A model generated the notes under the pieces. The model was given only the letters and a program-made list of their open reading frames with translations, made no database searches and was not told where the DNA came from. Source: an uncultured bacterium (GTDB taxonomy: Bacteria; Patescibacteriota; Minisyncoccia; UBA6257; 2-01-FULL-56-20). From it: 64,000 nt of DNA. This document shows, in pieces, positions 1,417 to 64,000 of this stretch. The DNA is taken from assembly GCA_963844965.1 (NCBI GenBank), contig CAWJQC010000007.1:128001-192000 (forward strand). The letters run 5' to 3'. Position numbers and translations under genes: made by a program. Each line of letters starts with the position of its first letter. Position 1 is the first letter of the stretch.

Positions 1417-2019
1417 ATGTTCAAAGAATTTAAGGGCCGCGAGCTGCAACCTCGGGATATAATGATACGCGAACTGTTGCGGAATTTTGCCGGTTTGAAG
1501 CCTTTTGACAAACTGGAAATTTCTTCCAGCATTGCAGAACTAAAAACTAAAAAAGAGTTCACAGATTTAATTGAGGCCGGATCTACGGAACTTGCCCGCG
1601 ATCTGCTTTTTAACATCGCCAATTCTATGATTAAAAAACGGCTTGAATTGAGAAAAAGTGAACTGGGAAAAATAAAAGAGAAAGGCCCGGCGCCTGCGCC
1701 CGATAGAACGAGATTTCGTGATGACGAACTGGTTGAGAAGCTTATGGGAGTGCTTGAAGAAAAATTTGATGTTTCGGAGAAAGAAAGGTCTGTGCAAATA
1801 CAAAAACTGAGGACTTGGCAGCCGAAAAGCACCGAGGGAATGAGTCATGGCAAGCGTGGGCGCGACACCCCGCATACTGTTCTGCGCAAAAATATGCGCG
1901 GAGGAAAAAAAATATCGGAATTGCCGGTCAATCCAAGTGTTTTACACGCCATTGATGATGCCGAAGATGCCGAAATACAGAAGCGGATTGCCGGCGGCGA
2001 ACAAGAATCGGAAACTTAA
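1417..2019 (+). CDS. hypothetical protein
   Basis: 200-aa ORF with a charged, coiled-coil-like composition and no recognisable motif. Confidence 0.35.
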   Translation: MFKEFKGRELQPRDIMIRELLRNFAGLKPFDKLEISSSIAELKTKKEFTDLIEAGSTELARDLLFNIANSMIKKRLELRKSELGKIKEKGPAPAPDRTRFRDDELVEKLMGVLEEKFDVSEKERSVQIQKLRTWQPKSTEGMSHGKRGRDTPHTVLRKNMRGGKKISELPVNPSVLHAIDDAEDAEIQKRIAGGEQESET

Positions 2020-2020
2020 C

Positions 2021-2701
2021 ATGAGCGAGCGGAACGTCAGTTTAATACTTTTTATAATATCTTTGATTGCGATTTTCACCGCTTTCGCGTTTTACGCCGC
2101 TTTTTACTTCACGACTTCGTTTTTGATTCACGACAGCGTGAATAAAACCTTGCTTTGGAGCGGGCTTTTTGACAGGCAAATTCGGGTTCAGGCGGAGAAA
2201 AAAGTGAACAGCTCCCCCGCCGTTCCTTCGGGTCAGATTGATACCTCAAATTGGAAAACCTACCGCAACGAGAAATACGGATTTGAGGTAAAATACCCGG
2301 CAGAATTAGAGATACGCAGTCCTTCGGAGAGCCCTCTTCCCGGTGAGCTCATGATCCACATTATAGCCGATGACTATAAAAACACCGAAGAGGGACCGGC
2401 TGCGTTTTATGAAGGCAAGGATGAAATTATATGGAAAAGCCGATTGTCTCACGAAACTTCTTATAAAGTTGGCGATCAGTGCCTAGAGGGAGATTGGGGT
2501 TTCGGGACTTACAACAGGGAAGAAATAAATTGCACAGTTTTTAATCTGCATCCGTATGCGATTAAAGAGGAGGTACCCAACATTGTGGAGCTCAGTTTGC
2601 CCACACAAAATTTCGACCTAACAATAGAAATTTATTATAGAAAATACTCTGACGAAGTTTTGCAGCAAATCCTCTCCACGTTCAAGTTTATTCAAACATA
2701 A
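2021..2701 (+). CDS. membrane-anchored hypothetical protein carrying the conserved block DTSNWKTYRNEKYGFEVKYP and ending TFKFIQT
   Basis: ATG at 2021 followed by an N-terminal TM helix. It is a paralog of 5582..6304. Confidence 0.55.
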   Translation: MSERNVSLILFIISLIAIFTAFAFYAAFYFTTSFLIHDSVNKTLLWSGLFDRQIRVQAEKKVNSSPAVPSGQIDTSNWKTYRNEKYGFEVKYPAELEIRSPSESPLPGELMIHIIADDYKNTEEGPAAFYEGKDEIIWKSRLSHETSYKVGDQCLEGDWGFGTYNREEINCTVFNLHPYAIKEEVPNIVELSLPTQNFDLTIEIYYRKYSDEVLQQILSTFKFIQT

Positions 2702-2793
2702 TGCGAATCTGCGAATGTGTGCGAATGCCGTGAATGATTGGGATTTAAAATTTATTTAGAAATTAGAAATTAGTAATTAGAAATTTTTGTATT

Positions 2794-3243
2794 ATGCTCA
2801 TCTATATCGGCGCGGACCACCGCGGGTTCAATTTAAAAGAGCGGATAAAAGGTTTTCTGCGCGAACGCGGCTATGAATCTTTTGACGTCGGCAACGCGAA
2901 GTACGACGCGAACGACGATTACCCGGATTACGCCGAGAAAGTCGCGAAGGGAGTGGCGGCCGAACCGGGACGAGATAAGGGAATTCTGATCTGCGGTTCC
3001 GGAGTCGGGATGGATATCGTGGCGAACAAGTTCAAAGACGTGCGCTCCGTTTTGGCTCTTAGCACCGACCATGTTTTTGACGCCCGTCACGACGACAACG
3101 TGAACGTTTTGAGCCTGGCGGCTGATTTTATTACCGAGGAGGACGCCTTCAAGATTGTGGGGATCTTTTTGGAGACACCGTTCGCCGGAGATGCCAAGTA
3201 TAAAAGGCGGCTTGAAAAAATTTCCCAAATAGAGAACCGCTGA
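2794..3243 (+). CDS. rpiB: ribose-5-phosphate isomerase B
   Basis: IGADHRGF and ICGSGVGM motifs; 149 aa. Confidence 0.9.
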   Translation: MLIYIGADHRGFNLKERIKGFLRERGYESFDVGNAKYDANDDYPDYAEKVAKGVAAEPGRDKGILICGSGVGMDIVANKFKDVRSVLALSTDHVFDARHDDNVNVLSLAADFITEEDAFKIVGIFLETPFAGDAKYKRRLEKISQIENR

Positions 3244-3296
3244 CGGGAGATTGGAACATAAAAAAGGCCACCGCTGCGCGATGGCTGTTTTCGTAT

Positions 3297-3866
3297 TTAT
3301 TCAACGTGGACTGGCTGGCTGGCGGGAAAAACGTCACAGTGCTTTTCCTTCCAGGCAATCCATTTTTCTGAGGTTGTGGCGAATACTTTTTCGTGCATGT
3401 CCATTATTTCGACAAGCGAAAGTGGACGGTAGTTTTCGCCGCAGGGGTCCGGCACGTAGGTGGGACCATCTCCGCCCCACGACTTTCTCCTATAGAACCA
3501 ACCTTGTTCGTTCGTCGAATCCGGACCCTTGAAGAGTATCGTTGTGTCGTGCCACGATTCTTGCGCCAGCGGCATTTGTCCGAGTATTTCGGCGTGTTTC
3601 TCGTTATACGTTTTCTTGATTAGGTATGCCGTAAAACTTCTGATTTGTTCCAGTTCCAAATCCGTGGGCATGACCGAGTTAGCGTATAGCGACGCTATCC
3701 AGCCCGTGTTTGGGTGAGATGAACCAACCGGGATTTTGAATTCTGTTTGAATGCGTTCTATTTCGGATTCCGTCAAGTATTGCTTCATTTTCCCTCCGTT
3801 GATGGATGATTGGCAGAGCTGAGACAAGTTTACGCCGAATTCGGTTTTCGTGTCAATAAATGCCAT
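3297..3866 (-). CDS. hypothetical protein
   Basis: 189-aa ORF with ATG at 3864-3866 on the minus strand; no family recognised. Confidence 0.4.
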   Translation of the reverse strand: MAFIDTKTEFGVNLSQLCQSSINGGKMKQYLTESEIERIQTEFKIPVGSSHPNTGWIASLYANSVMPTDLELEQIRSFTAYLIKKTYNEKHAEILGQMPLAQESWHDTTILFKGPDSTNEQGWFYRRKSWGGDGPTYVPDPCGENYRPLSLVEIMDMHEKVFATTSEKWIAWKEKHCDVFPASQPVHVE

Positions 3867-3894
3867 GAGGTCGTTGTGCTACAATGAAACCATA

Positions 3895-4542
3895 ATGGAG
3901 GTTATCCCCGTAATAAATTGCCACGACAAAGATTTTGAGTGTGTGCTCGCGAAGGTCGCAATCGTGGAAAAGTTTCTGAAGAAAGGCGACTGGTTACACC
4001 TGGACGTTTCCGACGGACGCTTCACATTCAACAGGTCATGGAGAAATCCTACCCAGTGGGCGAACTTGCGTTCGGGATTTAACCTGGAAGCTCACCTGAT
4101 GGTTGAGGAGCCGGAGAGATATATTGAGGATTGGATCGCCGCCGGCGCGAAGCGGTTGATTATGCACGCGGAGACAATAAGCGAGCAAAGTGCGAAGCAT
4201 ATGGCGCAAAGAGCCAAACATCGCGGCGTGGAAGCGATGCTCTCAAGCGCGCCGCACACGACGTTCTCGGAACTTTGGCCATTTTTGAAATTATTCGGGG
4301 AATTTCAGGTTTTGGCCGTTGATCCGGGTCCGTCCGGCCAGAAATTTTTGCCGGTTGTCCTTGAAAAGATCAGGTTTTTGAGGAATTTCGCGCCGAGTGC
4401 TAAAATTGAAGTTGACGGAGGCATGACGCCGGAGACCGCCCGCGATGTAAGAGCGGCCGGAGCGGATATTGTCGCCTCCGCGACATATATTTTCGGAAGC
4501 AAGGACCCGAAGAGGGCGTACAAAGAACTTAGGAAAGTTTAA
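3895..4542 (+). CDS. rpe: ribulose-phosphate 3-epimerase
   Basis: HLDVSDGRF, VDPGPSGQKF and VDGGM motifs. Start chosen at MEVIPV so the gene does not overlap 3297..3866; alternative starts exist from 3850. Confidence 0.8.
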   Translation: MEVIPVINCHDKDFECVLAKVAIVEKFLKKGDWLHLDVSDGRFTFNRSWRNPTQWANLRSGFNLEAHLMVEEPERYIEDWIAAGAKRLIMHAETISEQSAKHMAQRAKHRGVEAMLSSAPHTTFSELWPFLKLFGEFQVLAVDPGPSGQKFLPVVLEKIRFLRNFAPSAKIEVDGGMTPETARDVRAAGADIVASATYIFGSKDPKRAYKELRKV

Positions 4543-4665
4543 AATGTAAAAATCAAAATGAAAAATGACAATGCAAAATGTCAAAATTGATTTTTTTTTA
4601 AAACCTTTACCATTTTTAATTTTTAATTGTCATTTTAAACTTTGATTTTTTAACTTTACATTTTT
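4541..4665. repeat. AT-rich imperfect palindrome between rpe and tkt, built from aaaatgN repeats
   Basis: The left arm (aaaatgtaaaaatcaaaatgaaaaatgacaat) is mirrored on the right as attgtcatttt...tttgatttt...tttacattt. Confidence 0.5.
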
Positions 4666-5526
4666 ATGTTGGATCTTCACGAGAAAAAAATAAGGCATTT
4701 GGAATTTATCGCGAACAAGTTACGCGAGGACGTGATTGGGATGGTTTCGGGGGCAGGTTCGGGACATATCGCTGGACCTCTCGGGATGGCCGACATCTTC
4801 GCCGCTCTTTATTTCCATATTTTGAGTCACAATCCCAAAAACCCCGGATGGGAGGGGCGCGACCGGCTGGTTTTGTCCAACGGCCATATCTGCCCTGTTC
4901 AATACGCGGCTCTTGCCCGTGCCGGTTATTTTCCGCTGGAGGAATTGAACACTTTGCGCCAGATCAATTCGCGGCTTCAGGGCCATCCGCATAGGAAAGC
5001 CTTGCCTGGGATTGAGACGACCTCCGGTCCTCTCGGAAGCGGAATTTCACAGGCAATCGGAATGGCGTTCGCGGCCCGGCTGGACGGCAAAAAATACCGC
5101 GTTTATTGTTTAACTTCCGATGCCGAACACGAGGAAGGCAACACTTGGGAAGCGTTGATGTTCGCCGGGAAGAACCGATTGAGCAATCTGACCGTTGTCG
5201 TTGACCGCAACAACATTCAGATAGACGGTTTTACGGAGAACGTGATGCCGCTTGAACCCTTGCGCGCCAAGTATGAAACGTTTAACTGGGAAGTTCTGGA
5301 GATCGACGGCCACGACTTCCGCCAAATTATTTCCGCCGTGGCCGAAGCGCAAGCGATTTACGAAAAGCCGACTGTGATAATAGCCCACACGATTCCCGGC
5401 AGGGGTGTTGGTTTCATGGAGTATGACTATCTCTGGCACAGCAAGCCGTTCAAGCCGGGGGAAGCGGAGAAGGCTTTGCGTGAATTGAGAACGTTGGGCG
5501 GAAAAATAGGAGGCGAACACGAATAG
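4666..5526 (+). CDS. transketolase, N-terminal (TPP-binding) subunit
   Basis: GSGHIAGPLGMADIF and DRLVLSNGH motifs; split-type transketolase. Confidence 0.9.
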   Translation: MLDLHEKKIRHLEFIANKLREDVIGMVSGAGSGHIAGPLGMADIFAALYFHILSHNPKNPGWEGRDRLVLSNGHICPVQYAALARAGYFPLEELNTLRQINSRLQGHPHRKALPGIETTSGPLGSGISQAIGMAFAARLDGKKYRVYCLTSDAEHEEGNTWEALMFAGKNRLSNLTVVVDRNNIQIDGFTENVMPLEPLRAKYETFNWEVLEIDGHDFRQIISAVAEAQAIYEKPTVIIAHTIPGRGVGFMEYDYLWHSKPFKPGEAEKALRELRTLGGKIGGEHE

Positions 5527-5581
5527 TTAGAAAGTAGTAGGTAGTAAGTAGAAAGTAGAACAGAAACAAAGTAGAAATACA

Positions 5582-11076: not shown

Positions 11077-11778
11077 ATGGAACTCGTTGTTCAAAAAAGA
11101 GAAAAATTTGGCAAAGCGGTAAGGTCTCTGCGTGAACAGGGCCTGATTCCGGCCGAGCTGTATGGCCGCGGGATTAAAAATTTGCATTTGGCGGTTCCCG
11201 CGAAGGATTTTCTTAAGACATGGAAGCAGGCCGGCGCGAACACCGTAGTTAATGTGCTTGTGGAGAACAGAAAACACCCCGTGCTCATATACGACGTTAA
11301 GAAAGATTACCTGACCGGCGAAGTTGAACATGTTGATTTCTACGCCGTGCGCATGGACGAGAAAATCAAGGCCAAAATTCCGCTTGAATTTGTGGGCGAG
11401 GCGCCGGCGGTCAAGGAAAAAAGCGGCATTTTAAATAAAGCTATGGCCGAAATTGAGGTTGAAGCGTTGCCGGCAAATTTGCCGCACAGCTTTGAAGTGG
11501 ATATCTCGTCGCTGGATGATATCAATAAGAGCATCTACGTTAAGGACATTAAGGTGCCGAAGGATGTAAGCGTTATTGTTGATCCGGAGACGGTTATCGC
11601 AACCGTTACGCCGCCGGCCAAGGAGGAAGAAAAAGTTGAAGCGCCGGTTGATATGAGTGCGGTTAAAGTTGAAGGCGAGGAAAAGAAGGCGGAACGGGCG
11701 GCGGAAAAGGTTAAGGGAGAAGAGGGTGGCGAACCACTTGTGAAGCCCGTGAAGGAAGAGCCCCCGAAAAAAGCATAG
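11077..11778 (+). CDS. rplY: 50S ribosomal protein L25 / general stress protein Ctc
   Basis: L25 N-terminal domain plus a Lys/Glu-rich C-terminal tail. Confidence 0.85.
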   Translation: MELVVQKREKFGKAVRSLREQGLIPAELYGRGIKNLHLAVPAKDFLKTWKQAGANTVVNVLVENRKHPVLIYDVKKDYLTGEVEHVDFYAVRMDEKIKAKIPLEFVGEAPAVKEKSGILNKAMAEIEVEALPANLPHSFEVDISSLDDINKSIYVKDIKVPKDVSVIVDPETVIATVTPPAKEEEKVEAPVDMSAVKVEGEEKKAERAAEKVKGEEGGEPLVKPVKEEPPKKA

Positions 11779-11898
11779 AGTAATGGCCAGATCTAAGGGT
11801 CCGAAGCCAAAAGTTTTAGGTGACATAAGCCTGCCTGCCGCAGCACTCGGCGGGCAGGTTCTTCTAAAATCCCTGGGCGGCGCGATAACTTTACGGCC

Positions 11899-13356: not shown

Positions 13357-14637
13357 GTGATAATGGTATTCAAAAAAATAACTTTAGCCAACGGTTTGAG
13401 AATCATCCTCGCGCCGCAGCCTCAGAGTTTGGCGGCGACGGTTTTGATATTGGTCGCGGCCGGTTCTGAGTACGAAACAAATAAGATAAACGGCATATCG
13501 CATTTTCTGGAGCACATGATGTTCAAAGGAACCATCAATCGTCCGAAGCCTGGCATGATTGCCGAGGAGCTGGCGGCACTGGGCGCCCAAACCAACGCCT
13601 TTACTTCGCAAGAATACACTGGCTATTGGGGTAAGGCGGAAAATCACAAGCTGCCAAAAATTTTGGATATCGTATCCGATTTATATTTAAATCCGTTATT
13701 TAATCAAGAGGAGATAGAAAAAGAACGCGGAGTGATTATAGAGGAAATAAATAGATACGAAGATACGCCGCCACGGCGCGTGCAAGAATTTTTTACTTCG
13801 CTTTTATATGGTGACCAGCCGGCAGGGTGGGACATTGCTGGAAAAAAAGAGACCATAAGAAAGATCACGAAGAACGATTTTTTGAGGTATCGCGGAATCC
13901 ATTATATAGCACCTAAAACAGTGGTAGCAATTGCGGGAAAGTTTAACGAAAAAGAAGTTGAAGAACAAATTAGGAAGCGTTTTGGCGACTTAAGGCGCTA
14001 CGCCGTAGTCCGCAAAAGAAGAACTTCGGACAAACAAAGCAGAGCGGCGACGTTCGTTAAATTTAAAAATTCCGACCAAAGCCATCTCGTGCTTGGTGTG
14101 AGGGCTTTCGACCTATTTGACAAGAGAAGATATGCCATAGAGGTATTGGCGCACGTTCTTGGAAACTACTCAAGTATGAGTTCGCGGCTTTTCAAAAGAG
14201 TGAGAGAAGAAATGGGCGCGGCCTATTATATTGATGCTGGGGCGGACCTCTATCTTGATCACGGCTACCTTGCTGTTTCTGCAGGCGTGGATCATAAGAA
14301 GGTCAAACTGGTTATAGATGTTATTTTGGAGGAAATGAGACGCCTGAAGAAGGAATTGGTAGGCGAAAGTGAGCTTCAGAGGTCAAAAGACCATATCGTT
14401 GGGAATATGATATTAGGGCTGGAAACATCAGATGAGCTTGCCGGATTTTGCGGTCAGCAGGAAATATTAACCCGGCGTGTTTTGCCCGTTGAGCGATTAA
14501 TTGCTAAAATTCAAGGCGTGAGGGCTGGGGAGGTAAGAGCCGTCGCGAATCATATTTTTAGGGCCGATAAACTTAATCTTGCCATCATCGGGCCCTACAA
14601 AAAATCACAGATGTTTAAAAAAATCTTGAAATTATAA
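13357..14637 (+). CDS. M16-family zinc peptidase (insulinase-like)
   Basis: HFLEHMMFKGT inverted zinc-binding motif; 426 aa. Confidence 0.85.
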   Translation: MIMVFKKITLANGLRIILAPQPQSLAATVLILVAAGSEYETNKINGISHFLEHMMFKGTINRPKPGMIAEELAALGAQTNAFTSQEYTGYWGKAENHKLPKILDIVSDLYLNPLFNQEEIEKERGVIIEEINRYEDTPPRRVQEFFTSLLYGDQPAGWDIAGKKETIRKITKNDFLRYRGIHYIAPKTVVAIAGKFNEKEVEEQIRKRFGDLRRYAVVRKRRTSDKQSRAATFVKFKNSDQSHLVLGVRAFDLFDKRRYAIEVLAHVLGNYSSMSSRLFKRVREEMGAAYYIDAGADLYLDHGYLAVSAGVDHKKVKLVIDVILEEMRRLKKELVGESELQRSKDHIVGNMILGLETSDELAGFCGQQEILTRRVLPVERLIAKIQGVRAGEVRAVANHIFRADKLNLAIIGPYKKSQMFKKILKL

Positions 14638-14640: not shown

Positions 14641-14740
14641 CTTACGAAAGTACGAAAACATACGAAATTACGAAAAAGGTGAGCCATGCCATTTCGTACA
14701 TTCGTACAATTTCGTATTTTCGTAAGACAAATTTCGTATG
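14641..14740. repeat. Palindromic element copy A: four direct TACGAAA heptamers, a core ggtgagcc, then four TTTCGTA heptamers
   Basis: Near-identical architecture to the element at 63850..63940. Confidence 0.8.
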
Positions 14741-15767
14741 CCGGAAACAAGGACATCTGAAATTTCGTGGGTTACTCTGTGGCGGATTTTGTTTTTCGCC
14801 TTGCTTGTCGCGGTTCTCTACCTGGGGAGGCAGATTCTTTTGGGGTTATTTCTTGCCATAATTATTTCGTCGGGCATAGAGGTGGTGGTGAATTTTTTTG
14901 AGAGGGTGGGCATACCGAGAACGCTAGGTGTGATTTTGCTTTTTCTTGCCGGCTTGGTGCTCATAATTATTGTCATTTATACGGTTATTCCCCTGATAGT
15001 GGTTGATTTGAATTCCATTTTTTTCGGTTTTGATAAGTCAACGGCCGGCGTCATTTGGACATCACTCGTAGAGTCTGAGAACTTCGCAGTCGGTAAACAC
15101 GCTTCTGAGCGGTCTTTCGCAGCAATTTTTTTCCGGGAGCGCTTCTCCTTTGGATGTTTTTTCAAAGACTCTCGGAAGTTTCGGGCTTGTCATGGCGGTG
15201 ATCGTAAGTTCGTTTTATTTGAGCATAAGCCGCGACGGAGTGGAGAGGTTTATAAAAGCCGTGCTGCCCGCCGATTACGAGAAGTCGGCTTTGAGCATCT
15301 ATGAGCGCTCAAGGAAGAGAATTGGCTTTTGGTTCCGAACGCAGATTTTTTTGAGTCTGCTAATCGGGCTTTCGGTTTGGGGAGTGCTCGTTCTTCTTGG
15401 CGTGAGGCACGCTTTTCTCCTCGGCATAGCGGCGGCTATTTTTGAAATTGTCCCCTATGTGGGCCCAATTCTTTCCGGCGCGCTCGCGGTTCTTATGGCG
15501 CTTTCCACGTCCGTATCCCTCGCGCTTTATACTTTGATAGCATTTCTAATTATCCAGCAACTTGAATCACACGTATTGGTGCCGCTTTTGATGAGGCGCG
15601 CCGTTGGTTTGCATCCGGTGATAGTCATCATCGCTCTCTTAATCGGCATAGAGGTCGGCGGAGTTTTGGGTGCCTTGATCTCCGTTCCGGCAGCCGCGGT
15701 TTTTGAAGAGGCGCTTGACGAATGGTCGCAGAAGAAACGGCCGAAAGAACCGGAACCCGTTATTTAA
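14738..15767 (+). CDS. AI-2E family transporter (PerM/YhhT-like) with an apparent -1 frameshift near 15070
   Basis: Two overlapping ORFs (14738..15304 and 15150..15767) together give a ~343-aa AI-2E protein. The reading frame changes at about 15068-15074. Confidence 0.7.
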
Positions 15768-15875
15768 TGCAATCCGAAAAATCCGAATTTCATCCGAATG
15801 ACCCAAATAGAATAAACAAAAACCATTTGGAGCATTCGGATGTATTCGCAGATTCGGATTGCTGTAGCGAAGCGT

Positions 15876-17276
15876 ATGAAAAAGTTTTACATTACGACGA
15901 CGCTTCCTTATGTGAACGCGCCGCCCCATATCGGTTTCGCTCTGGAGATTATCCAGGCGGATGTCATCGCCCGCTCCCGAAAGCTCGCGGGCGATGATGT
16001 GTTCTTTAATACGGGGACGGACGAGCACGGCTTGAAAGTATATCGCAGAGCGGTGGAAGAAAAAAAAGACCCGCAGGTTTACGTAAATGAATGTGCGGAG
16101 AAGTACGAAGATTTAAAACGTACGCTTGGCGCTGATTACACGAATTTTATCCGCACGACCGATCCCCATCACGTGAATGCCACGCGGGAATTTTGGAGAA
16201 AGTGCGACGAAAACGGTTATATCGAAAAAAAGCTCTATAAGATCAAGTACTGTGTTGGCTGCGAACTGGAAAAAACCGACTCCGAGCTTGAGAACGGCCG
16301 TTGCATAATTCACCCGAATCTTGAGATTGAAATAATAGAGGAAGAAAATTATTTTTTTCAATTCTCCCGGTATCCAGAAGTCCCTCCTCGTGCTTTACGA
16401 AAAATATCCGGATTTTGTTTTGCCAAGCGCAGCGTTTAAATGAGATAAAAAAATTTGTTGAGGGCGGCTTGCAGGATTTCAGCGTTTCGCGCCTCAAAAA
16501 AAAGATGCCGTGGGGCATTTCCGTCCCCGGGGGACGAAGAGCATGTGATGTATGTTTGGTTTGACGCTTTGGTGAATTATGTATCGGCTTTGGGCTGGCC
16601 GGAGAACAAAAAGAAGTTCGCCGATTTTTGGGGGACAGAAGCGGCGCCGAATGCCGTGCAGATCGCGGGAAAAGACAATCTTCGCCAACAGTCGGCAATG
16701 TGGCAAGCGATGCTTATGGCGGCCGGATTGCCCACTTCGCGGCAGATTCTCATACACGGTTTTATTACTAGCGGCGGCAGTAAGATGAGCAAAAGCTTGG
16801 GCAACGTGGCGGACCCGTTCTTTTTGGTCCAAAAATACGGCACGGACGCATTGCGCTACTGGCTACTGCGTGAGATTCCCGCCTTTGAAGACGGAGATTT
16901 TGAGGAAGAAAAATTGCGCGAGCGGTACAATGGCGACCTAGCGAACGGATTGGGAAATTTTGCCGCGCGCGTTTTAACGCTCGGCGCCGGCCTCGGTAAA
17001 GTTTCGGAAGGTTTAAAACCCGATGCCGAGATATCGGGATATATAGAAAAAACAAAAAAGGTGGTTTCGGAAAAAACGGAAGGATTCAAATTCCACGAGG
17101 CGCTTGCCGCGATTTGGGATTTGACCGGCTTCGGCGATTCGTATGTGAATAAGACCGCGCCGTGGGGGATAAAGGATGCGGCGGAAAAAACACAGACAGT
17201 TTTCAATTTGGTAGTGATTTTGGATAATGTGGCGGCGATGCTTCGGCCATTTTTGCCGGGAACGCGCGCAAGATAA
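15876..17276 (+). CDS. metG: methionyl-tRNA synthetase (short form), interrupted by three single-base insertions between 16374 and 16533
   Basis: PYVNAPPHIGF (HIGH) and KMSKS motifs. The frame goes 0, 1, 2, then back to 0, and conserved MetRS sequence (QKSLLVLYEKYPDFVLPSAAF, NEIKKFVEGGLQDFSVSRL, PGDEEHVMYVWFDAL) is recovered in the shifted frames. Confidence 0.85.
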
Positions 17277-18100: not shown

Positions 18101-19073
18101 ATGGACCGTCAATCGGAAAAATCAATTTTTTTTGACGCGCACACGCATGTTCAATTTCAGGCGTTCGCTGGCGATTATAAGGAAGCCGTCGGGCGCGCTT
18201 TGAGTTCGGGCGTCGGCATGGTGAATGTCGGCACACAGAAGGACACCTCGCGGCGGGCCGTGGAAATCGCGCACGAATACGAGAACGAAAAAATTTTCGC
18301 AGCGGTCGGTTTGCATCCGATTCATACCGGTAAATCGTTTCACGACGAGGATGAACTTGGCCTACCGCGGACAGACGCAGATGATACGCAGACAGACGCG
18401 GAAAATTTTCAGCGTAAGTCCGCGTTAAATCCGCATGGGTCGGCGTCTGCTGGCTTCTGGAGCAGGGCGGAGGAATTCGATCATGAGTACTATAAAAAAC
18501 TCGCGCTGGACCAAAAGTTGTGGCGGTAGGGGAATGCGGATTGGACTATTACCGTGCGACAAGCGACATGGGACAAGCGACATGGAATGAAATGAAGGCG
18601 CTAAACAGAGGCAGGTGCTTGGGGCACAGATACAACTTGCGCGGGAAATAAAAAAGCCCTTAATGCTCCACTGCCGAGACGGAAAAAAGTCCGGCACGGG
18701 GCCGGCATTTGATGATTTGGTTAATATTTTAGAGAGTCATGCGGCAGGTGTTCCCTTTGTGAGCCACTCTTTCGTCCGCAATCTCGGGTTGGCGAAAAAA
18801 TTACTTGATTTGGGTTCGTATTTTTCTTTTAACGGCATTATTACATTCACGCACGATTACGATGAAGTTGTGCGTTTTCTGCCGGTGGACAGGATATTGT
18901 CCGAGACAGATGCGCCGTATCTCGCGCCTGTGCCCCATAGGGGCAAACGCAACGAACCGGCGTATGTGGTAGAGGTTGTTAAGAAGATGGCGGAAATAAG
19001 AGGCCTTTCGATTGAAAAGATGGCAGAGCAGATTCGGGAAAATACGGGAAAAATTTTCGGTTTGAGATTTTGA
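18101..19073 (+). CDS. tatD: TatD-family deoxyribonuclease with two frameshifts at about 18513 and 18600 and a perfect 14-bp tandem duplication (18558-18571 / 18572-18585)
   Basis: FDAHTHV, KVVAVGECGLDYYR and PLMLHCRD motifs are found in three different frames. Confidence 0.75.
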
Positions 19074-19150: not shown

Positions 19151-22100
19151 ATGAAGAAGTATAACTTCGGAGAAATAGAGAAAAAGTGGCAGGAGGCGTG
19201 GGAGAAAGAAGAGCTTTACCGTGCCGACGACAAGAGCAAGAGAGAAAAAAAATATGTTCTGATTGAATTTCCGTATCCGTCTGGCGAGGGGCTACACATG
19301 GGGCACCTCCGGCCTTATGTTGCTGGAGACGTTTATAGCCGCCATTTGCGGATGTGCGGATATGAAGTTATGTATCCTATCGGCTGGGACGCGTTCGGAC
19401 TGCCCGCGGAGAACTATGCCATCAAGAACGGAATTCAACCGTCAATCTCAACGGCGCGGAACGTGAAAAATGCGAAGCAGCAGCTCAAAAGCTGGGGGAT
19501 GGGTTTTGACTGGTCGCGCGAGATAAATACGACCGACCCGAATTACTATAAATGGACACAGTGGATATTCCTGCAGCTTTGGAAAGCCGGCCTGGCTTAT
19601 GAAGCCACCGGTCTTATAAATTGGTGCCCGAAGGACAAAACCGGTTTGGCGAATGAGGAGGTAATTAACGGTTGCTGCGAGCGTTGCGGGGCGCTCGTGG
19701 AAAAAAAGGAAATGCGGCAGTGGTACCTCAAAATTACCGCCTACGCCGAAAAACTCTTGGAAGGTTTGAAGACGCTTGATTGGCCGGAAAAAATAAAAGT
19801 TCAGCAGGAAAACTGGATCGGCCGTTCGGAAGGAGCGGAAATAGATTTTGAAGTCGCTGGGCAAAAACCGAAGAAGGTAATATTGATGCATGGGAAAGAT
19901 GCAAATCCTGACGAAAAGTGGTATCCGTGGCTTGCGGAAGAAGTTCAAGAGCGCTGTACTAAATTTATTGCGCCTCGTCTGCCGGAATCCGACAATCCCG
20001 AACTTGAAGCATGGCTTCGTGAAATAGAAAAAGCGAATCCCGATGAAGATACTATTCTTATTGGACATTCTCGCGGTGGGGTGGCGATTTTGAGGTGGCT
20101 GGAAAATCTTAGGTCGGGGAAAGTCGTTAAAAAGGTAATAATAGTAGCTTCGGACAGGGGAGATGCCAAAAAGGAATCGCGGGGTTTTTTTGGCAAACCC
20201 TACGATTTCAAAAAAATACGGTCTCATTGCGACAGTTTTGTTGTTCTACATTCAAGGGACGATGAATGGGTGCCATTTGAAGCGGGTGAATATATTGCCA
20301 AAAATCTGAACGCCAACTTTTTGATTTTTGACGGCAGGGGACACTTCGGAAAAAAATTGCCAAAACAGGAAATTTCCGAACTCGTTGGTGAAATTTTTCC
20401 GAGTATCAAGGTTTTCACCACCCGCCCCGACACGCTTTTCGGTGCGACGTATATGGTTTTGTCGCCGGAACACGAACTTATATTAAAAATTAAAAATCAA
20501 ATATTAAATTGGGGGGAAGTTGAAAAATATATAAAAGTTGCTCAGGGCAAATCAGAGGAAGAACGTATTGCCGAAGGAAAGGAAAAAACCGGCGTGGAGC
20601 TCAAAGGAATCAAGGCGATTAATCCGGCGACGAAGGAAGAAGTTCCCATTTGGGTGGCGGATTATGTGCTTGCGGGATATGGCACGGGCGCGATCATGGC
20701 TGTGCCGGCGCACGACGAACGGGATTTTGAATTTGCGAAGAGGTATAAATTACCGATCAGGGAAGTTATAGCCCCGCTATTTATCGAGAAAGGAGGTCTA
20801 GATGCTTGGAGAGAGACCGGTGTTACAAAAAAACGCAACACAGTCAGTTGTATCATCAAACATTGGTCCGAGGATAAGTACCTTTGTCTGCGCTGGGTGC
20901 ACGATAACTGGCGCGGATTTGTAATCGGTGGCGTGGAAGGTGGCGAAGACATCATAGAAGCTGCCTGTAGGGAAATACGAGAAGAAACCGGATTCAAGAA
21001 TGTAAAATTTATAAAAGTACTTGGAAACGAGATTCACTATAAATTTTTTGCCTCCCATAAAAACGAAAACAGATGGAATGTTGGTCACGGGATTTATTTC
21101 GAACTCTTGAATGGCGAAAGTGATGAAATTTCTGAACAAGAAAAGAAATTGCATAGCGTTGTGTGGATTGATAAGGATAAAGTGGCCGATTTTATCGCCA
21201 ACGACCCCAGCGATTCTTTGTTGTGGGAGCGCCTTAATGGCGTATCGCGGCCGTTTATTGAGGAAGGAGTTCTGGTTGGTTCTGATAAATTCACCGGTAT
21301 GAATTCCGAAAAAGCCAAATGGGAAATTACGAAACTCGTCGGTGGGAAGAAACAAATTCAATATCGCCTGCGCGACTGGGTTTTTTCGCGCCAGCGCTAT
21401 TGGGGCGAGCCGATTCCGCTCGTCCACTGCGCGAAGTGCGGGATTGTTCCCGTGCCGGAAGAGGAATTGCCGCTGAAACTCCCGGAAGTGGAGAAATACG
21501 AACCTACCGGCACCGGCGAATCGCCGCTTGCTGCCGTGGATTCCTGGGTGAATACAAAGTGTCCTGAGTGCGGCGGGAGAGCGAAACGTGAAACTAACAC
21601 CATGCCGCAGTGGGCCGGAAGTTCGTGGTATTACCTCGCATACATAATGCGAGGAATTTCCCCGCCCGCGCCGACGCTTCGGCGGGCAGGCAATTTCCCC
21701 GCCAAAGGCGAGGCTAGCCAAGAGCTACAATTTCCAATTTCCAAATATCAAGAAGCTTTTAGGCATTGGCTGCCGGTTGACGTTTATTTCGGCGGCATGG
21801 AGCATACGACGCTTCATCTTCTTTATTCGCGGTTTTGGCACCAATTTCTCTACGATAAAAAATTCGTGCCGACGCCGGAACCTTATCTGCGTCGCGTGCC
21901 GCACGGGATAATTCTCGGTCCCGACGGCGAGAAGATGTCTAAAAGCCGCGGCAATATCGTGAGTCCCGACGAAATCGTGAAAAATTTTGGAGCGGATTGC
22001 CTCCGCATGTACGAACTATTCCTTGGTCCGCACGAGGCGACGGTTAGCTGGAAAAGCGAGGGCATTTTGGGGATTTCGCGGTTTCTGGAGCGCGTTTGGA

Positions 22101-22610
22101 AATTCTATGGAGTAATCGCGAATAATGCGAACCATGGACAAAATAATGCGAATGTTACAAGAAATTTACAACGGACGATCAAAAAAGATCACTGAAGATA
22201 TTGAAACATTCCACTACAATACTGCCATTAGCGCACTTATGATACTCTTGAACGACCTTGAAAAGACCGGCGCGGGAAAAGAAGTCGGAGAAATATTTTT
22301 GAAACTTCTCGCTCCGTTCGCTCCGCACATAACGGAGGAATTGTGGGGTGGGGCGTTTGGCAAAAAAACTTCCATCCATCGCGAGGCGTGGCCACAATAC
22401 GACGCAAATTTGATAAAAGAGGAAACATTCACGCTCGTGATCCAGGTGAATGGCAAAGTGCGTGACAGCGTGGAGGCGGCCGCGGGCGTAAGCGAATCGG
22501 AAGCGAAAGAGCTGGCTTTGGGCAGGGAAAAAATTAAAAATATTCTCGGCTCGGCAAAACCCAAACGCGTGATCTACGTTCCGAGCAAGTTAATTAATAT
22601 TGTGCTTTAA
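19151..22610 (+). CDS. leuS: leucyl-tRNA synthetase with two in-frame inserted hydrolase domains (an alpha/beta serine hydrolase at about 19870-20410 and a Nudix domain at about 20780-21260); +1 frameshift in the A6 run at 22181-22186 before the anticodon-binding domain
   Basis: HMGH, TTRPDT, YGTGAIMAVPAHDERD and YRLRDWVFSRQRYWGEPIP motifs plus KMSKS form a LeuRS core. The inserts carry the GHSRGG / HSRDDEW / GRGHF triad and the Nudix box GGVEGGEDIIEAACREIREETG. The C-terminal domain continues in ORF 22125..22610. Confidence 0.9.
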
Positions 22611-34633: not shown

Positions 34634-34807
34634 TCACGCGCTCGGTCGCCTGAGGCGACCTGTGCTTTTTAAAACCCTCGGTTTTTAATATTTTCCTACA
34701 CGGGGAACCGAGCGCGGTTCCCCGACCCCCTCCGCTGTTCGATTCCCTCAAAACCAGGTAACAAAAGAAAAAGGCGGCCGTCGCCGACCGCCTTTTTCTT
34801 TTGTTCG

Positions 34808-34878
34808 TGGACCTGGGGGGAATCGAACCCCCACCTCTTCCATGCCATGGAAGCGTTCTGCCACTATACTACAGGCCC
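34808..34878 (-). tRNA. tRNA-Ala (anticodon GGC)
   Basis: G3:U70 pair, anticodon arm cttcc-atGGCat-ggaag, T-loop ttcgatt, discriminator A. Confidence 0.8.
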
Positions 34879-36329: not shown

Positions 36330-36420
36330 TCTGTTGATTAACGAATTAACGGATTGCGTATTAACGGATTCGGTTTTTGATTCGTTAATTCGTTGATGCG
36401 TTAATAAATAATTTTTAACT
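36330..36420. repeat. Palindromic element built from TTAACG(A/G)ATT repeats and their inverse
   Basis: ttgattaacgaattaacggattgcgtattaacggattcgg ... gattcgttaattcgttgatgcgttaata. Confidence 0.5.
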
Positions 36421-50506: not shown

Positions 50507-50586
50507 GGGCCCCGTAGCGCAGATTGGTCAGCGCGCCCGACTGTTCAAGCGGGAGGTCGCTGGTTCGAATCCAGCCGGGCCCACCA
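50507..50586 (+). tRNA. tRNA gene with CCA. The acceptor, D and T arms are canonical (given one extra C in the 5' acceptor), but the anticodon arm is irregular (4-bp stem cccg/cggg with a 10-nt loop actgttcaag). Identity unresolved; Asn-GTT is one possible reading.
   Basis: T-arm gctgg-ttcgaat-ccagc, D-arm gcgc-agattggtca-gcgc, 3' end cgggccc-a-cca. Confidence 0.55.
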
Positions 50587-50717: not shown

Positions 50718-50788
50718 GGCGCGGTCGTCAAGTGGCAAGACTGAGGGCTTGCAAGCCCTTATCGGGGGTTCGATTCCCTCCCGCGCCT
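50718..50788 (+). tRNA. tRNA-Cys (anticodon GCA)
   Basis: Acceptor ggcgcgg/ccgcgcc, discriminator U, loop ttGCAag, T-arm ggggg-ttcgatt-ccctc. Confidence 0.8.
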
Positions 50789-52486: not shown

Positions 52487-52587
52487 TTGTGCTCCGCACA
52501 AGAATTTTCAGGTAATAATTTTCAATTTTCAAATGGTTTGGAAATTGTAAATTGCAAAATTGGAAATTCTCGCGCGCAGCGCGAGGT
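52487..52587 (+). other. Intervening sequence B in 23S helix 45 (about 100 nt): terminal hairpins gtgctccgcac and ctcgcgcgcagcgcgag around an AT-rich palindrome
   Basis: Sits between GAAGCTACGAATTACC and GTAGTGGTAGGAGAGC, the helix-45 IVS site. Confidence 0.65.
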
Positions 52588-52884
52588 AGTGGTAGGAGAG
52601 CATTCGTATTGCACTGAAGCTCGACCCGCGAGGGCGAGTGGAGCGGTACGAAGAGACAATGTTGGTATGAGTAACCACAATCCCAATGAGAAATTGGAAC
52701 CCCGAAAATCCAAGGTTTCCGTGGCACTGGCAATCAACCACGGGTTAGGCGGCCCTAAGCCGATCCCGAAAGGGGCAGGCGATGGACAGACGGTTAATAT
52801 TCCGTCCCTTCCCTATGGTTATCTGCCGCATGACGGAGGAAATAAGCTTGCGTGCCTTATTGGTTTGGCATGGTTTGCCTCAAA

Positions 52885-53033
52885 GCGTGTCTCACTGCGT
52901 TCGACACTATAGTTAAACAATTTTTCAGTTAACGAGTTGCGAGTTAACGAGTTGAAAACAAAAAACCCGTTAACACGTTAACTCTTTAACTCGTTAATAA
53001 TTAATTATTGGGTGGCGAGCGGAGCGAGGCACG
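52885..53033 (+). other. Intervening sequence C (helix 58 region), a member of the CGTGYCTCACTNNCGTTCGRCAC ... GAGCGGNGCGAGGCACG family
   Basis: Closing helix cgtgtctc / gaggcacg; interior gttaacgagtt repeats and their inverse. Confidence 0.65.
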
Positions 53034-53237
53034 TTGGAGGCCGACCGAAGGTTCGGTTTTTACCGGGCCGACGCAGGCGAAGAGCCTTCCAAGAAAAGCG
53101 CGGCGGTCACGCCGTAGAGAATCCGTACCGGAAACCGACACAGGTGGATTGGGCGAGAAGCCCTAGGGGAACGAGTGATTTGCCTCTAAGGAACTCGGCA
53201 AACAAGCGGCCGTAAGTTAGCAATATGGCCTGCCCGA

Positions 53238-53353
53238 CCGTGCCTCACTGCGTTCGGCGCGGAATTTAAAATTTTACAATTTTTAATTTTCAAACTGTTT
53301 GCAAAATTGAAAATTATATATTGAAAATTCCGCACGAGCATAGCGAGGTGCGG
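53238..53353 (+). other. Intervening sequence D (helix 63 region), same family
   Basis: Closing helix ccgtgcctc / gaggtgcgg (G-U compensated); interior aattttcaaa / tttgcaaaattgaaaatt palindrome. Confidence 0.65.
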
Positions 53354-54297
53354 TTGGGCCGCAGCGAAAGTCCCTTTGGCGACTGTTTACCAAAAACACA
53401 GCTCCCTGCGAACTCGCAAGAGGATGTATAGGGGGTGACGCCTGACCGATGCGAGAAGGTCAAGGCCGACGGTGCACGTAGCACATAGCATGTAACACAA
53501 AACAAGAAAAAATAAATAAAACCTGCTCCATGTTACATGTTGCGTGCTGCGTGTGCTGATTGGCTCAAGCCCTCGTCAATGTCAGCGGTAACTATAACCG
53601 TTCTAAGGTAGCGCAATTCCTTTTCGGGTAAGTTCCGAAGCGCACGAAAGGCGTAACGATCAAAGGACTGTCTCAGAGGCAAGCTCGGTGAAAATGCGAT
53701 TCCCGTGAAGACGCGGGATACCTGCAGCGGGACGAAAAGACCCCGGAAGCTTTACTGCAGCTTGGTATTGTTTCTAGGGCTTTGATGCGTAGCGTAGTGG
53801 GGAGCCTTTGAAGCTCCGCTCTCGGGCGGGGTGGAGGCGACAATGAAACACCCATCTTCAAAGTTTTAGCGACTAACCAGTTGGGGACCCTACACTCTCT
53901 AGATAAATTTTGGAAATCCAGAGAGTGTAGGGAAACCCAACCGGGACAGTGCTTGGTAGGCAGTTTAAATGGGGCGTTTTCCTCCAAAAAAGTAACGGAG
54001 GAGTTTATTAAGGTCGGCTTAGCCCGGATGGAAATCGGGCAGGACGTGCAAACGCAAAAGCCGGCTTAACTGCAAGGCCTACAAGCCGCGCAGATGCGAA
54101 AGCAGAAGTTAGTGACCCGACCACACATTATAGAATGGTGGGAGACACCGGACAAAAGCTACTCCGGGGATAACAGGCTGGTGAAGTCCGAGAGTCCCTA
54201 TCGACGACTTCGCTCGGCACCTCGATGTCGGCTCGGCACAGCGCGGGGGTGAAGAAGCTCCCAAGCGTTTGGCTGTTCGCCAATTAAAGTGCCACGT

Positions 54298-60085: not shown

Positions 60086-60865
60086 ATGCTGAAAAAAAGA
60101 TTATTTTGGCTGGTGCTTGTCGCCGTGGCGGTTCTCGGCGTGGGTATCTACTTCAATTCCGCCGGCGCGAATATTTTTGCTGGTGCGTCCGCGGGCGGCA
60201 AGTGGTTCCTGCTAATTCTCATCGTCGCGGCCTTAGCCGAGAGCTTAAATCCCTGCGCTTATTCGGTTTTGCTTCTTACCATCGCTTTTCTTTTCAGCTT
60301 GGGCAGGTCCAGAGCTCATATTCTACAGGCGGGAGGCGCGTTCATTTTGGGAATTTTTCTCGTCTACATCGGCATCGGCCTCGGCGCTTTGCAGGCGTTG
60401 CAGTTGTTCAACACGCCTCACTTTATGGCGAAAATCGGCGCGGTGATTCTCTTCGTTTTGGGGTCAATAAACCTCATAAACTCTTTCTTCCCGAAGTTCC
60501 CCATAAAATTGAGCATTCCGCAGTCGGCGCACAATAAAATGGCGCTGCTTATGGAAAAGGGTTTCATTCCCACGGCGTTTGCCCTGGGAGCGCTCGTCGG
60601 TCTCGGCGAATTTCCCTGCACGGGCGGGCCGTATCTCGTGGTGTTGGGGCTCTTGCACGATCAGGCGACGCGACTTGCCGGTTTGGCGTATTTGCTGCTC
60701 TTTAATTTGATTTTCATCTTGCCGCTCGTTATATTCTTATTAATAGCGAGCGAACAATCACTTCTTGCGAAAGTGCAGGAGTGGAAAAAATCAAGCACGG
60801 GAAACATGCGATTCTGGTCGGGAATCGTAATGGTCGTTCTGGGAGTGATAATTTTCTTCCTCTAA
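60086..60865 (+). CDS. ccdA: cytochrome c-type biogenesis / thiol-disulfide transporter CcdA (DsbD transmembrane-domain family)
   Basis: Two conserved Cys motifs (LNPCAYSVL and FPCTGGPY) in a six-TM protein. Confidence 0.75.
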   Translation: MLKKRLFWLVLVAVAVLGVGIYFNSAGANIFAGASAGGKWFLLILIVAALAESLNPCAYSVLLLTIAFLFSLGRSRAHILQAGGAFILGIFLVYIGIGLGALQALQLFNTPHFMAKIGAVILFVLGSINLINSFFPKFPIKLSIPQSAHNKMALLMEKGFIPTAFALGALVGLGEFPCTGGPYLVVLGLLHDQATRLAGLAYLLLFNLIFILPLVIFLLIASEQSLLAKVQEWKKSSTGNMRFWSGIVMVVLGVIIFFL

Positions 60866-60955
60866 CGGCTAAAATTATATAATGCGAAAATTGCGAATAC
60901 TGTATGCGAATAATGCGAAAAATTTTCGCGGTATTCGCATAAATAATTCGTAGAT
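60866..60955. repeat. Palindromic element built from (A/T)TGCGAA(A/T)A repeats and their inverse
   Basis: atgcgaaaattgcgaatactgtatgcgaataatgcgaaaaattttcgcggtattcgcat. Confidence 0.5.
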
Positions 60956-61468
60956 TTGCATTATGATCCTATGGACGAAATAAAGGATTTTGAAGCGTTG
61001 GTTAAAAAAGTTGAAGCGATGAAAAAATCCGGAACGGTGGATTTGTCCACCGAAGAGGATTTGAGCATCGCGATAATGAACCTCGTCAGCTTGGAAGAAC
61101 ACTTCTTTTTCACCGGCGAGAAAACCGGCAAGGAGGAATATTTTGACCTGCTCGGCGAGGTGCGGGAAATGCGCAAGAAACTTCTCGCCAAAATGATAGA
61201 CAAACACGAAGGCGAGACGTGGTGCATTTCCAAGCATCTCTTGGCGACAACGATGCGCTTGATAGAGGTCGGGACGAAGTTGCGGGGCGACAAGAAGCTG
61301 AAAGAAGCGAAAGAAGTTTTTGAACAGGCGTTCAAGATCTATTCCATGTTTTGGGCGCTGCGCCTGAAGTTGATTGATGCTTCCGGATTTAAACAAGCCG
61401 CGGCTAGCGAAAAACCCTGGACCCTGAAAGATATCGTTAATAAATTAGTTGATTGCTGCGATGAATAG
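60956..61468 (+). CDS. hypothetical protein
   Basis: 170 aa, soluble and helical. Confidence 0.4.
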   Translation: MHYDPMDEIKDFEALVKKVEAMKKSGTVDLSTEEDLSIAIMNLVSLEEHFFFTGEKTGKEEYFDLLGEVREMRKKLLAKMIDKHEGETWCISKHLLATTMRLIEVGTKLRGDKKLKEAKEVFEQAFKIYSMFWALRLKLIDASGFKQAAASEKPWTLKDIVNKLVDCCDE

Positions 61469-63849: not shown

Positions 63850-63940
63850 TCTTACGAAAATACGAAAATATACGAAATTACGAAAACTAAATTTGAGGTG
63901 ACCACATTTCGTACGTTCGTAAAATTTCGTACTTTCGTAA
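63850..63940. repeat. Palindromic element copy B: four direct TACGAAA heptamers, a core gaggtgacc, then four TTTCGTA heptamers
   Basis: Paralog of 14641..14740. Confidence 0.8.
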
Positions 63941-64000
63941 GAGCGGGCAATAGCGAGCATGAAATCCAAAAAATTAATTCTCAAATTTGAAGAAGTCGGC

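Follow-up and report, generated by a model that had tools for sequence, protein, structure and literature searches.

Two long palindromes built of short repeated boxes, each lodged behind a gene, raise the question of whether they serve the host genes around them, arose in place by mutation, or were inserted from elsewhere. They lie in a stretch of 64,000 nucleotides, which we call the window; its G+C content is about 49%, and its proteins find their best matches in Patescibacteria (Liptonbacteria/Paceibacterota-like). An earlier note on this DNA described two near-identical hairpins, at 14641 and 63850, made of four boxes followed by four inverse boxes, and both the boxes and the z-scores of the folds confirm that description. 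We refer to these elements as E1 and E2:

14641 to 14726, no strand assigned: E1, a miniature TACGAAA-type palindrome with four boxes, a 16-nt loop and four inverse boxes
14732 to 14738, plus strand: an extra fifth TTTCGTA box 3' of E1, overlapping the ATG of the AI-2E transporter gene
63850 to 63942, no strand assigned: E2, a second miniature TACGAAA-type element, after a glycerate kinase-like gene

The TACGAAA boxes of E1 start at 14643, 14651, 14661 and 14669 (spacing 8, 10, 8). They are followed by the loop AAGGTGAGCCATGCCA, which contains GGTGAGCC, and by TTTCGTA boxes at 14692, 14710 and 14718; the second box of the right arm, at 14701, matches at only 6 of 7 positions (TTCGTA). E2 has its direct boxes at 63853, 63861, 63871 and 63879, a loop that includes GGTGACC, and inverse boxes at 63907, 63916 (again 6 of 7), 63925 and 63933. 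The box order is thus LLLLRRRR in both, with the direct boxes 5'. Between the two elements the boxes are conserved, while the 1-3-nt spacers between boxes differ in a non-compensatory way. The window holds 28 occurrences of TACGAAA where 12.2 +/- 3.7 would be expected, and 15 of the 28 fall inside E1 and E2. As RNA, E1 folds with a dG of -37.3 kcal/mol (z -6.4) and E2 with -31.2 kcal/mol (z -5.7); in neither case did any of 200 dinucleotide shuffles fold as well, and both elements form long interrupted hairpins on both strands.

E1 fills the whole spacer between the stop codon of an M16 peptidase gene (14635-14637) and the ATG of the AI-2E transporter gene (14738). E2 follows the stop codon of the glycerate kinase-like gene (63840-63842), and its 3' tail, AGAGCGGGCAATAGCGAGC, reaches the next ATG at 63959. 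The idea that such elements sit at gene ends is therefore half right: they do begin just after stop codons, but they fill the entire spacer up to the start of the next, co-directional gene.

E1 and E2 have company in the window. The further sites that had been listed with them (at 36330, 60866 and 4541, in the 23S insertions, and as direct-only arrays at 2701 and 5521) are all real, and two members absent from that list, at 15771-15859 (ATCCGAA) and 18366-18445 (CGCRGA), were also seen:

2701 to 2785, plus strand: an orphan TGCGAAT arm (three to four boxes, spacing 8, 10), then an unrelated direct array of four TTAGAAA heptamers (2756-2785), without an inverse partner
4534 to 4664, no strand assigned: an AAAATGN-type A/T-rich repeat palindrome with a weak fold (z -1.85), filling the spacer between the rpe and transketolase genes
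5524 to 5577, plus strand: a direct-only GTAGAAA-type heptamer array (period 7, z 4.0) between two transketolase ORFs
15771 to 15859, no strand assigned: an ATCCGAA-type 3+3 palindrome (dG -39.4, z -7.6), directly 3' of the AI-2E gene stop (15765-15767)
18366 to 18445, plus strand: a CGCGGA/CGCAGA-type (CGCRGA) 4+4 element in frame within the window's tatD, with spacing 10, 11, 10 in each arm
36337 to 36405, no strand assigned: a TTAACGRA-type 3+3 palindrome (z -4.8), filling the spacer between recO and a DUF11 gene
52517 to 53553, plus strand: four short 23S rRNA insertions (at about 52517-52568, 52927-53004, 53259-53333 and 53475-53553), whose interiors are repeat-then-inverse hairpins
60887 to 60957, no strand assigned: a TGCGAAW-type 4+4 palindrome (dG -32.8, z -5.65), filling the spacer after the ORF at 60086-60865

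The TGCGAAW boxes are one base per box away from TACGAAA. The CGCRGA element encodes about 29 extra residues in a variable loop of the tatD product, where one relative has 10 and another none. The 23S gene of the window spans 3839 nt against a model of 2925 positions. An AAAATGN-like element is also present in a Saccharibacteria MAG (L015, 2751-2828). An exact 6-mer scan for repeat-then-inverse hairpins returned only E1 and E2 in the window, the other members being too degenerate, and an Rfam scan of the window at gathering thresholds returned only rRNA and tRNA genes, with nothing at the elements. Repeats are not a general property of the spacers here: in a periodicity survey that relied on crude gene picking, only about 9-10 of some 55 window spacers of at least 40 nt carried short-period repeats.

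Comparison with relatives shows that E1 is an insertion at a site that is empty elsewhere. In two genomes (L119 and L122) whose M16 peptidase is 73% and 69% identical to that of the window, the gene order of M16 peptidase, AI-2E transporter and MetRS is kept, and the spacer between the first two genes measures 6 and 14 nt, where the window has 100 nt. The AI-2E genes of the window and of both relatives begin at orthologous start codons (MPETRTSEISW / MPQETKAFEISW). Because these nearest empty-site genomes are only about 70% identical at the protein level, the boundaries of the insertion are not defined to the base. Target-site duplications were looked for around E1, E2 and five copies in a Nomurabacteria MAG, and none was found; the flanks instead extend the palindrome (tc...ga).

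Copies elsewhere were sought in one genome per species as three TACGAAA boxes 0-4 nt apart, a pattern that matched at least 118 stretches. These fall into two classes. The first consists of perfect 7-bp microsatellites beside other heptamer arrays, mostly in Bacteroidota, Planctomycetota and others, and is a different phenomenon from the E1/E2 family. The second has the architecture of E1 and E2 and comes almost only from Patescibacteria (CPR) MAGs of many classes: Uhr-, Nomura-, Doudna-, Harrison-, Moran-, Magasanik-, Falkow- and Sungiibacteria and Saccharibacteria, with a few MAGs labelled Gammaproteobacteria. Among the matches listed, about 40 copies of the same layout occur in 23 other assemblies, nearly all labelled Patescibacteria, and 4+4 is the commonest box count; the TACGAA array lies 5' of TTCGTA in 39 of them, and the reverse order, which would fold equally well, was found in none. 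The miniatures contain no ORF and measure 75-125 bp; their arms, 33-36 nt long, are 83-86% complementary. Some copies from distant lineages are nearly identical to E1 and E2, and over 136 nt, including the tail, E2 shares 78% identity with an element in the groES-groEL spacer of a Saccharibacteria MAG (L005). The window holds two copies in 64 kb, an 8-kb Moranbacteria locus (L052) five, and one Nomurabacteria MAG also five, in which arms and flanks are virtually identical and loops differ. Near-identical arms with variable loops within a genome fit selection on the arms, and fit gene conversion too. E1 and E2 thus belong to a dispersed CPR family, and the common origin that had been suggested for such elements holds for E1, E2 and the copies in other CPR genomes, which agree in box number, spacing and the degenerate second right-arm box. 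Phages were considered as vectors and rejected: the three-box pattern matched 105 stretches in IMG/VR, all of them direct arrays and none palindromic.

Could the family have arisen in place, with slippage making the repeats, template switching turning them into palindromes, and nothing moving at all? Some observations fit slippage. The window has direct-only heptamer arrays (2756-2785 and 5524-5577), perfect heptamer microsatellites, including (TACGAAA)n, occur in many unrelated phyla, and arrays differ from one another by whole units, as in the partial duplication of a right arm at L038 6646-6753. A purely mutational origin would, however, have to yield, across distant CPR lineages, an identical box in a 4+4 count, spaced 8-10-8 and with the second right-arm box degenerate each time, one of two equally foldable orders by 39 to 0 among the matches listed, and identical arms at five junctions of one genome. 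It would also have to place the arms around a single gene clade in six of six cases, as described below. We therefore strongly disfavour this explanation and give it only a slim chance.

The positions of the copies bear on what the elements might do for the host. Mapping the arrays in one genome per species placed them mostly between a stop codon and the next start codon. Most copies begin 2-14 nt past the stop codon and end 2-15 nt ahead of the next start, between co-directional genes. In Nomura- and Moranbacteria they occupy junctions of the S10 and spc ribosomal-protein operons (L3/L4, S19/L22, L22/S3, S3/L16, S8/L6 and L6/L18). Other copies lie within genes: TACGAAA-type elements are in frame inside tsaD in two loci (L010 and L115, one of them from a Harrisonbacteria MAG), where the insertion reads ...YENTKTYESTK...FRNF..FRTFVSK..., and a third in-frame miniature is found in a GT2 gene of L115.

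These positions, together with the empty site, speak against a hairpin that the host has selected as a bidirectional terminator, as the earlier note had proposed, or as a stabiliser of mRNA 3' ends. The start of the elements right after stop codons and their strong hairpins on both strands would suit such a role. E1 and E2 are nevertheless not terminators: neither has a U-tract or a terminator-like match; their stems are A/T-rich with internal loops, and their tails are AGACAAA and AGAGCGGG. Copies also stand amid co-transcribed ribosomal-protein genes, inside ORFs such as tsaD and tatD, and inside 23S rRNA, and relatives with the same gene pair have an empty site. We consider a host-selected hairpin of either kind very improbable. 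Much the same reasoning applies to the companion proposal of a regulator-binding array, in which TACGAAA boxes would be operators of a host transcription factor and define a regulon. Conserved boxes with variable spacers do look like protein-binding sites. The neighbouring genes, on the other hand, are unrelated (a peptidase, a transporter, a glycerate kinase, groES/groEL, ribosomal proteins, pilT/pilC, secD/secF), the elements lie mostly within operons and not in promoter regions, and here again the site is empty in relatives; we accord a regulon of this type hardly any likelihood.

What the arms belong to became apparent from a Saccharibacteria contig (L058), in which 410 nt separate a left arm of TACGAAA boxes from a right arm of TTTCGTA boxes between pilT and pilC. 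They bracket a frameshifted gene of the GxxExxY family (PF13366 PDDEXK_3, E 4.5e-16; TIGR04256). In our CPR loci there are four other GxxExxY coding regions, two of them genes and two embedded domains, and all four have boxes upstream and inverse boxes downstream, with one box each: CGCTGA, CCGAAT, CGCAGA and CTACGRAT. The same Saccharibacteria contig carries both a full CGCTGA cassette (3451-3852) and a gene-less CGCTGA hairpin (68-148), and a GxxExxY domain in L115 is flanked by ATCCGAA-type boxes. From this we set a prediction beforehand, namely that TACGAAA arms should be found around the genes for the intact proteins most similar to that of L058. A protein search with the L058 protein returned a large clade of proteins of about 130 residues, 60-76% identical, many from Patescibacteria, and the predicted arms were present in five of the five homologues looked up (L310, L311, L315, L317 and L318). 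Their left arms consist of four to five TACGAA boxes between the upstream stop codon and the gene's own start codon, and their right arms of TTCGTA boxes between the gene's own stop and the next start, four in number where the contig permits a count. The five lie in four contexts: beside an unknown ORF, at cupredoxin/dnaG, at pilT/pilC (twice) and at secD/secF. TACGAAA-type arms therefore bracket a GxxExxY gene in 6/6 members of the clade that we examined, and the arms of the homologues align box for box with those of E1 and E2; across miniatures and full cassettes, 17 columns of the left arm and 18 of the right are invariant. Within the 64-kb window itself, and inside the elements, we found no GxxExxY gene or remnant of one.

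The association extends beyond the TACGAAA type. A metagenome scan with a two-sequence GxxExxY profile gave 80 loci, with a modal layout of 4+4 boxes spaced 10, 11-12, 10 in both arms, a layout that the CGCRGA element in tatD matches. Of 74 real positions, 50 had three or more boxes upstream and also three or more inverse boxes downstream, as against 1 of 250 control positions shifted by 600-900 nt. The box varies by clade (CGCAGA, CGCGGA, GCGGAA, GCGGAT, ACGGAT, ACTGAT, GCTGAT, CACAGA); an identical box can occur in cassettes of different host genes, and one host gene can have cassettes of different boxes. The nuclease domain lacks its own start codon in 46 of the 80 loci, where it lies in frame, box arrays included, in a long host ORF. 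The embedding hosts are LepA (in the GTPase domain), RecG (in the helicase core), a class I aminoacyl-tRNA synthetase, GatB, GT2 and GT4 glycosyltransferases and transketolase. Among the loci examined here, we saw no GxxExxY gene inside an rRNA insertion. A plasmid-borne GxxExxY gene in Treponema was seen to have a single inverted pair and not arrays.

The GxxExxY protein keeps an intact nuclease motif, in which D, E and K are invariant. A confident structure model (pLDDT 89.9) predicts a PD-(D/E)XK fold closest to Cas4, tRNA-splicing endonuclease and Hjc. A sequence search of the PDB found no solved GxxExxY homologue, PADLOC was uninformative, and no known transposase or recombinase is associated with the cassettes. 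A survey of the PD-(D/E)XK superfamily lists PDDEXK_3 as "unknown" (PMC3424549). At the pilT/pilC site of three lineages the nuclease is 67-70% identical, as against 53-66% for PilT and 32-44% for PilC, which implies either strong constraint on the nuclease or a spread more recent than that of its neighbours. The cassette could recur at this site through ancient vertical descent and not through repeated insertion. Arms and gene would be co-inherited whether or not the protein binds the boxes. With regard to the suggestion of a common binding protein, a cognate protein for each box type is plausible, each type travelling with its own GxxExxY clade, but a single protein reading a CGAA core is not, given the cassettes with CGCAGA, GCGGAT, ACTGAT and CACAGA.

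Taking these observations together, we propose that E1 and E2 are probably gene-less miniatures of an insertion cassette that is widespread in Patescibacteria. The full cassette begins with four TACGAAA boxes, spaced about 7-8, 10-12 and 8, as its left arm and ends with four TTTCGTA boxes as its right arm. Between them lies a gene of some 390 nt, whose GxxExxY product of 130 residues is predicted to be a minimal PD-(D/E)XK nuclease (PDDEXK_3, TIGR04256), and the whole occupies exactly the stop-to-start gap between host genes. The miniature lacks the gene, and its arms, separated by a loop of 6-60 nt, give it the look of a long interrupted hairpin. The TGCGAAW, ATCCGAA, CGCRGA and TTAACGRA hairpins of the window would be miniatures of sister cassettes, with a box of their own for each nuclease clade. 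The link between box and nuclease gene was tested directly for the TACGAAA type; the ATCCGAA and CGCRGA elements are read as relatives from the matching boxes around GxxExxY domains elsewhere, and the TGCGAAW and TTAACGRA elements from their architecture.

How the cassettes spread can be outlined more tentatively. We infer that they are selfish and mobile, and that miniatures arise by gene loss or are mobilised in trans. The four boxes of each arm would then be putative recognition sites of the cognate nuclease; inverted four-box arms, with boxes about one helical turn apart in most clades, resemble transposon ends. The elements would persist at sites of low cost to the host: operon spacers, rRNA helix tips and, where the reading frame is kept, surface loops of proteins. 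The transcript hairpin may be a by-product or, at most, may bring the stop codon before it near to the start codon after it, which would let the host operon go on working.

A different function for the hairpin is conceivable at the RNA level, where the element would be an intervening sequence, its paired arms forming a processing stem cut by RNase III or by the GxxExxY nuclease. This is compatible with a cassette origin, and the two can coexist. Every copy within a protein gene, however, the 46 embedded GxxExxY domains included, keeps the reading frame and has no stop codon, which points to translation through the element and not to its excision. On the sense strand G.U is not in excess among the arm mismatches (24 G.U against 35 A.C), the spacers between boxes differ without compensation, and the in-ORF copy at 18366 barely folds (z -2.4). 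We thus judge a functional RNA processing stem to be unlikely. In host-gene orientation the arm mismatches also include 48 A.A against 11 T.T, an excess of A.A.

The proposed miniatures, and the cassettes from which they would derive, can be compared with several known systems. The Correia/NEMIS elements of Neisseria are likewise ORF-less, multi-copy sequences of 70-130 bp with the terminal inverted repeats of a longer, gene-carrying element, and they too insert between genes and are co-transcribed as hairpins. The miniatures described here differ in that they have no visible target-site duplication, that their inverted repeat is made of four 6-7-bp boxes and not of one continuous sequence, and that the parent encodes a 130-aa PD-(D/E)XK nuclease and not a known transposase. 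As in MITEs in general, the miniatures are short, lack an ORF, have inverted repeats, vary in presence between relatives and occur in several copies per genome, whereas the target-site duplication expected of MITEs is not seen; as for a parent, the same arms bracket a GxxExxY gene in all six clade members, the mobilising role of which is putative. Rickettsia palindromic elements, also about 100 bp long, occur in intergenic positions and, in frame, within genes, whose proteins gain a peptide from them; palindromes inserted in frame without a stop codon, which mark elements of that kind, are found here as well. Our elements come from another host phylum and have a box structure, so that homology to the RPE-1 to RPE-8 consensus sequences is not expected. 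No gene-carrying parent is known for any Rickettsia palindromic element, whereas the GxxExxY cassettes are a form with a nuclease gene.

Full cassettes recall other elements. The ORF-bearing 23S intervening sequences (S23p / 23S_rRNA_IVP) of Coxiella and Leptospira are selfish, sit at rRNA helix tips and enclose a small ORF in a stem of inverted repeats (PMC4990558). Shorter versions of them lack the ORF, as our miniatures do, and the 23S insertions of the window have a repeat-hairpin interior of the same sort. In our cassettes the ORF encodes a GxxExxY nuclease and not a four-helix-bundle protein, and the elements lie mostly outside rRNA. REP/BIME elements with their RAYTs offer a parallel in their many extragenic imperfect palindromes, placed after stop codons within operons, and in a dedicated small enzyme gene flanked by repeats; REPs, however, are single palindromes of 20-40 nt and RAYTs are HUH tyrosine transposases, in contrast to four-box arms and a PD-(D/E)XK fold. 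Inteins and homing endonuclease genes also place a nuclease domain in frame at conserved sites, as the cassettes do in LepA, RecG, aminoacyl-tRNA synthetase and GatB, and free-standing homing endonucleases recur at the same junction across lineages, as the cassettes do at pilT/pilC. Unlike inteins, the cassettes have inverted box arrays in the DNA, many unrelated insertion sites and no Hint or splicing domain, so the GxxExxY insert presumably stays in the host protein.

TIGR arrays are short-period repeats with palindromic features in CPR genomes, as our elements are (PMC12045711). They have a 36-nt period, two variable spacers of 8-10 nt and box C/D motifs, and adjoin a Nop-domain Tas gene (PMC12045711), whereas the boxes here stand 1-5 nt apart without such spacers and beside housekeeping genes. 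CRISPR and TIGR guide arrays were both rejected as identities for E1 and E2, given boxes without constant-length spacers and neighbours such as an M16 peptidase, an AI-2E transporter and a glycerate kinase-like gene. Integron attC sites were likewise rejected on inspection: the ends CTTACGAAA...TTTCGTAAG are without RYYYAAC/GTTRRRY cores, and copies sit in ribosomal-protein operons. Among the known families, none (MITE, Rickettsia palindromic element, intein or ORF-bearing 23S intervening sequence) fits on defining features, because target duplication, a known transposase and a Hint domain are all missing and each arm is an array of boxes. We class the miniatures as palindromic non-autonomous elements; the chance that the parent cassette is a new mobile class is considerable. 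Our literature search found no account of hairpins like E1 and E2, or of GxxExxY genes flanked by box arrays; its coverage was incomplete and an earlier description is possible, and we call the parent cassette apparently undescribed.

At its boldest, the proposal is that GxxExxY cassettes are a new class of mobile element, in which a putative box-recognising nuclease moves itself and its miniatures, with neither a classical transposase nor target duplication, into operon spacers, rRNA helices and, in frame, loops of essential proteins throughout the Patescibacteria. We advance this tentatively, as a possibility and not as what we expect. The elements call for some care in annotation: they break assemblies (many cassette contigs are only 1-3 kb long), inflate or split gene calls, and can pass for terminators, CRISPR-like arrays or domain fusions.

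Very small and compact as CPR genomes are, they carry unexplained insertions in rRNA genes and essential proteins, some of which one type of cassette now ties together. Odd intergenic hairpins and some in-frame protein insertions are connected in this way to GxxExxY / PDDEXK_3 cassettes, and the hairpins of the 23S insertions by resemblance only. If the bolder proposal is true, the GxxExxY system would have left its footprint in many of the CPR protein insertions and short rRNA insertions that so far lack an explanation, and each nuclease clade would be a natural sequence-specific enzyme, whose 6-7-bp specificity could be read from its own arms. Should the pairing of box and protein be real, the family would amount to a large natural set of small nucleases.

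At the junction between pilT and pilC, we found a GxxExxY nuclease gene between TACGAAA arms in three different lineages of Patescibacteria (CPR), each represented by one locus:

L058, 1700-2190: TACGAAA-armed GxxExxY cassette at pilT/pilC
L315, 1460-1937: TACGAAA-armed GxxExxY cassette at pilT/pilC
L317, 9958-10435: TACGAAA-armed GxxExxY cassette at pilT/pilC

Across these lineages, the nuclease is more conserved (67-70% identity) than the neighboring PilT (53-66%) and PilC (32-44%). The L317 contig also carries free-standing small GIY-YIG ORFs of 67 and 83 residues between its pilus genes (11691-11894 and 15844-16095), neither of which is flanked by box arrays.

Outside CPR, an annotated GxxExxY gene lies on plasmid pTS1 of Treponema saccharophilum (L321, 331266-331655); its flanks form a single inverted pair (CACGGATTCG / CGAATCCGTG), not four-box arrays. 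Long perfect 7-bp microsatellites, (TACGAAA)n among them, occur in Bacteroidota and other phyla (L002, L008, L021, L028, L089, and other non-CPR loci), where several different heptamers are often adjacent and drift from unit to unit. These microsatellites are a phenomenon distinct from the CPR palindromes.

Within the window, three consecutive genes are each divided into two ORFs by frameshifts:

14738-15767: AI-2E transporter gene, split
15840-17276: metG, split
18101-19073: tatD, split

A short homopolymer, in aaaag|ttg close to 18514-18520, marks the position of at least one of these frameshifts, and the split ORFs are probably assembly errors rather than biology. The window's leucyl-tRNA synthetase gene (19151-22195) has Ser_hydrolase/alpha-beta hydrolase and NUDIX domains nested within it; its counterparts in L119 and L122, relatives of the window organism, give identical Pfam matches. 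Two tRNA-like genes at 50508-50586 and 50718-50788, part of a three-tRNA cluster directly upstream of the 23S gene, have abnormal anticodon loops, with 4-nt and 2-nt “anticodons” assigned by ARAGORN, and score 51 and 48 bits against the Rfam tRNA model. At 34737-34828 lies a 44-nt inverted repeat, 77% complementary. Its right arm overlaps tRNA-Ala (34807-34878) in the 3' portion of that gene, and the repeat resembles a partial duplicate of the tRNA end in inverted orientation.

In L115 (MAG DAIDAM010000003), a single 852-residue GT2 glycosyltransferase ORF (1663-4221) contains three in-frame insertions: two are complete GxxExxY domains accompanied by their box arrays, and the third is a miniature that lacks the gene. 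The tsaD gene of L115 (region 4230-4800) holds an in-frame TACGAAA element and, in addition, direct heptamer arrays that split it among three reading frames; these arrays consist of AATCCGG three times plus CAAATTT three times, and of AATCAGA three times. The tsaD reading frame would shift if one 7-nt unit were gained or lost.
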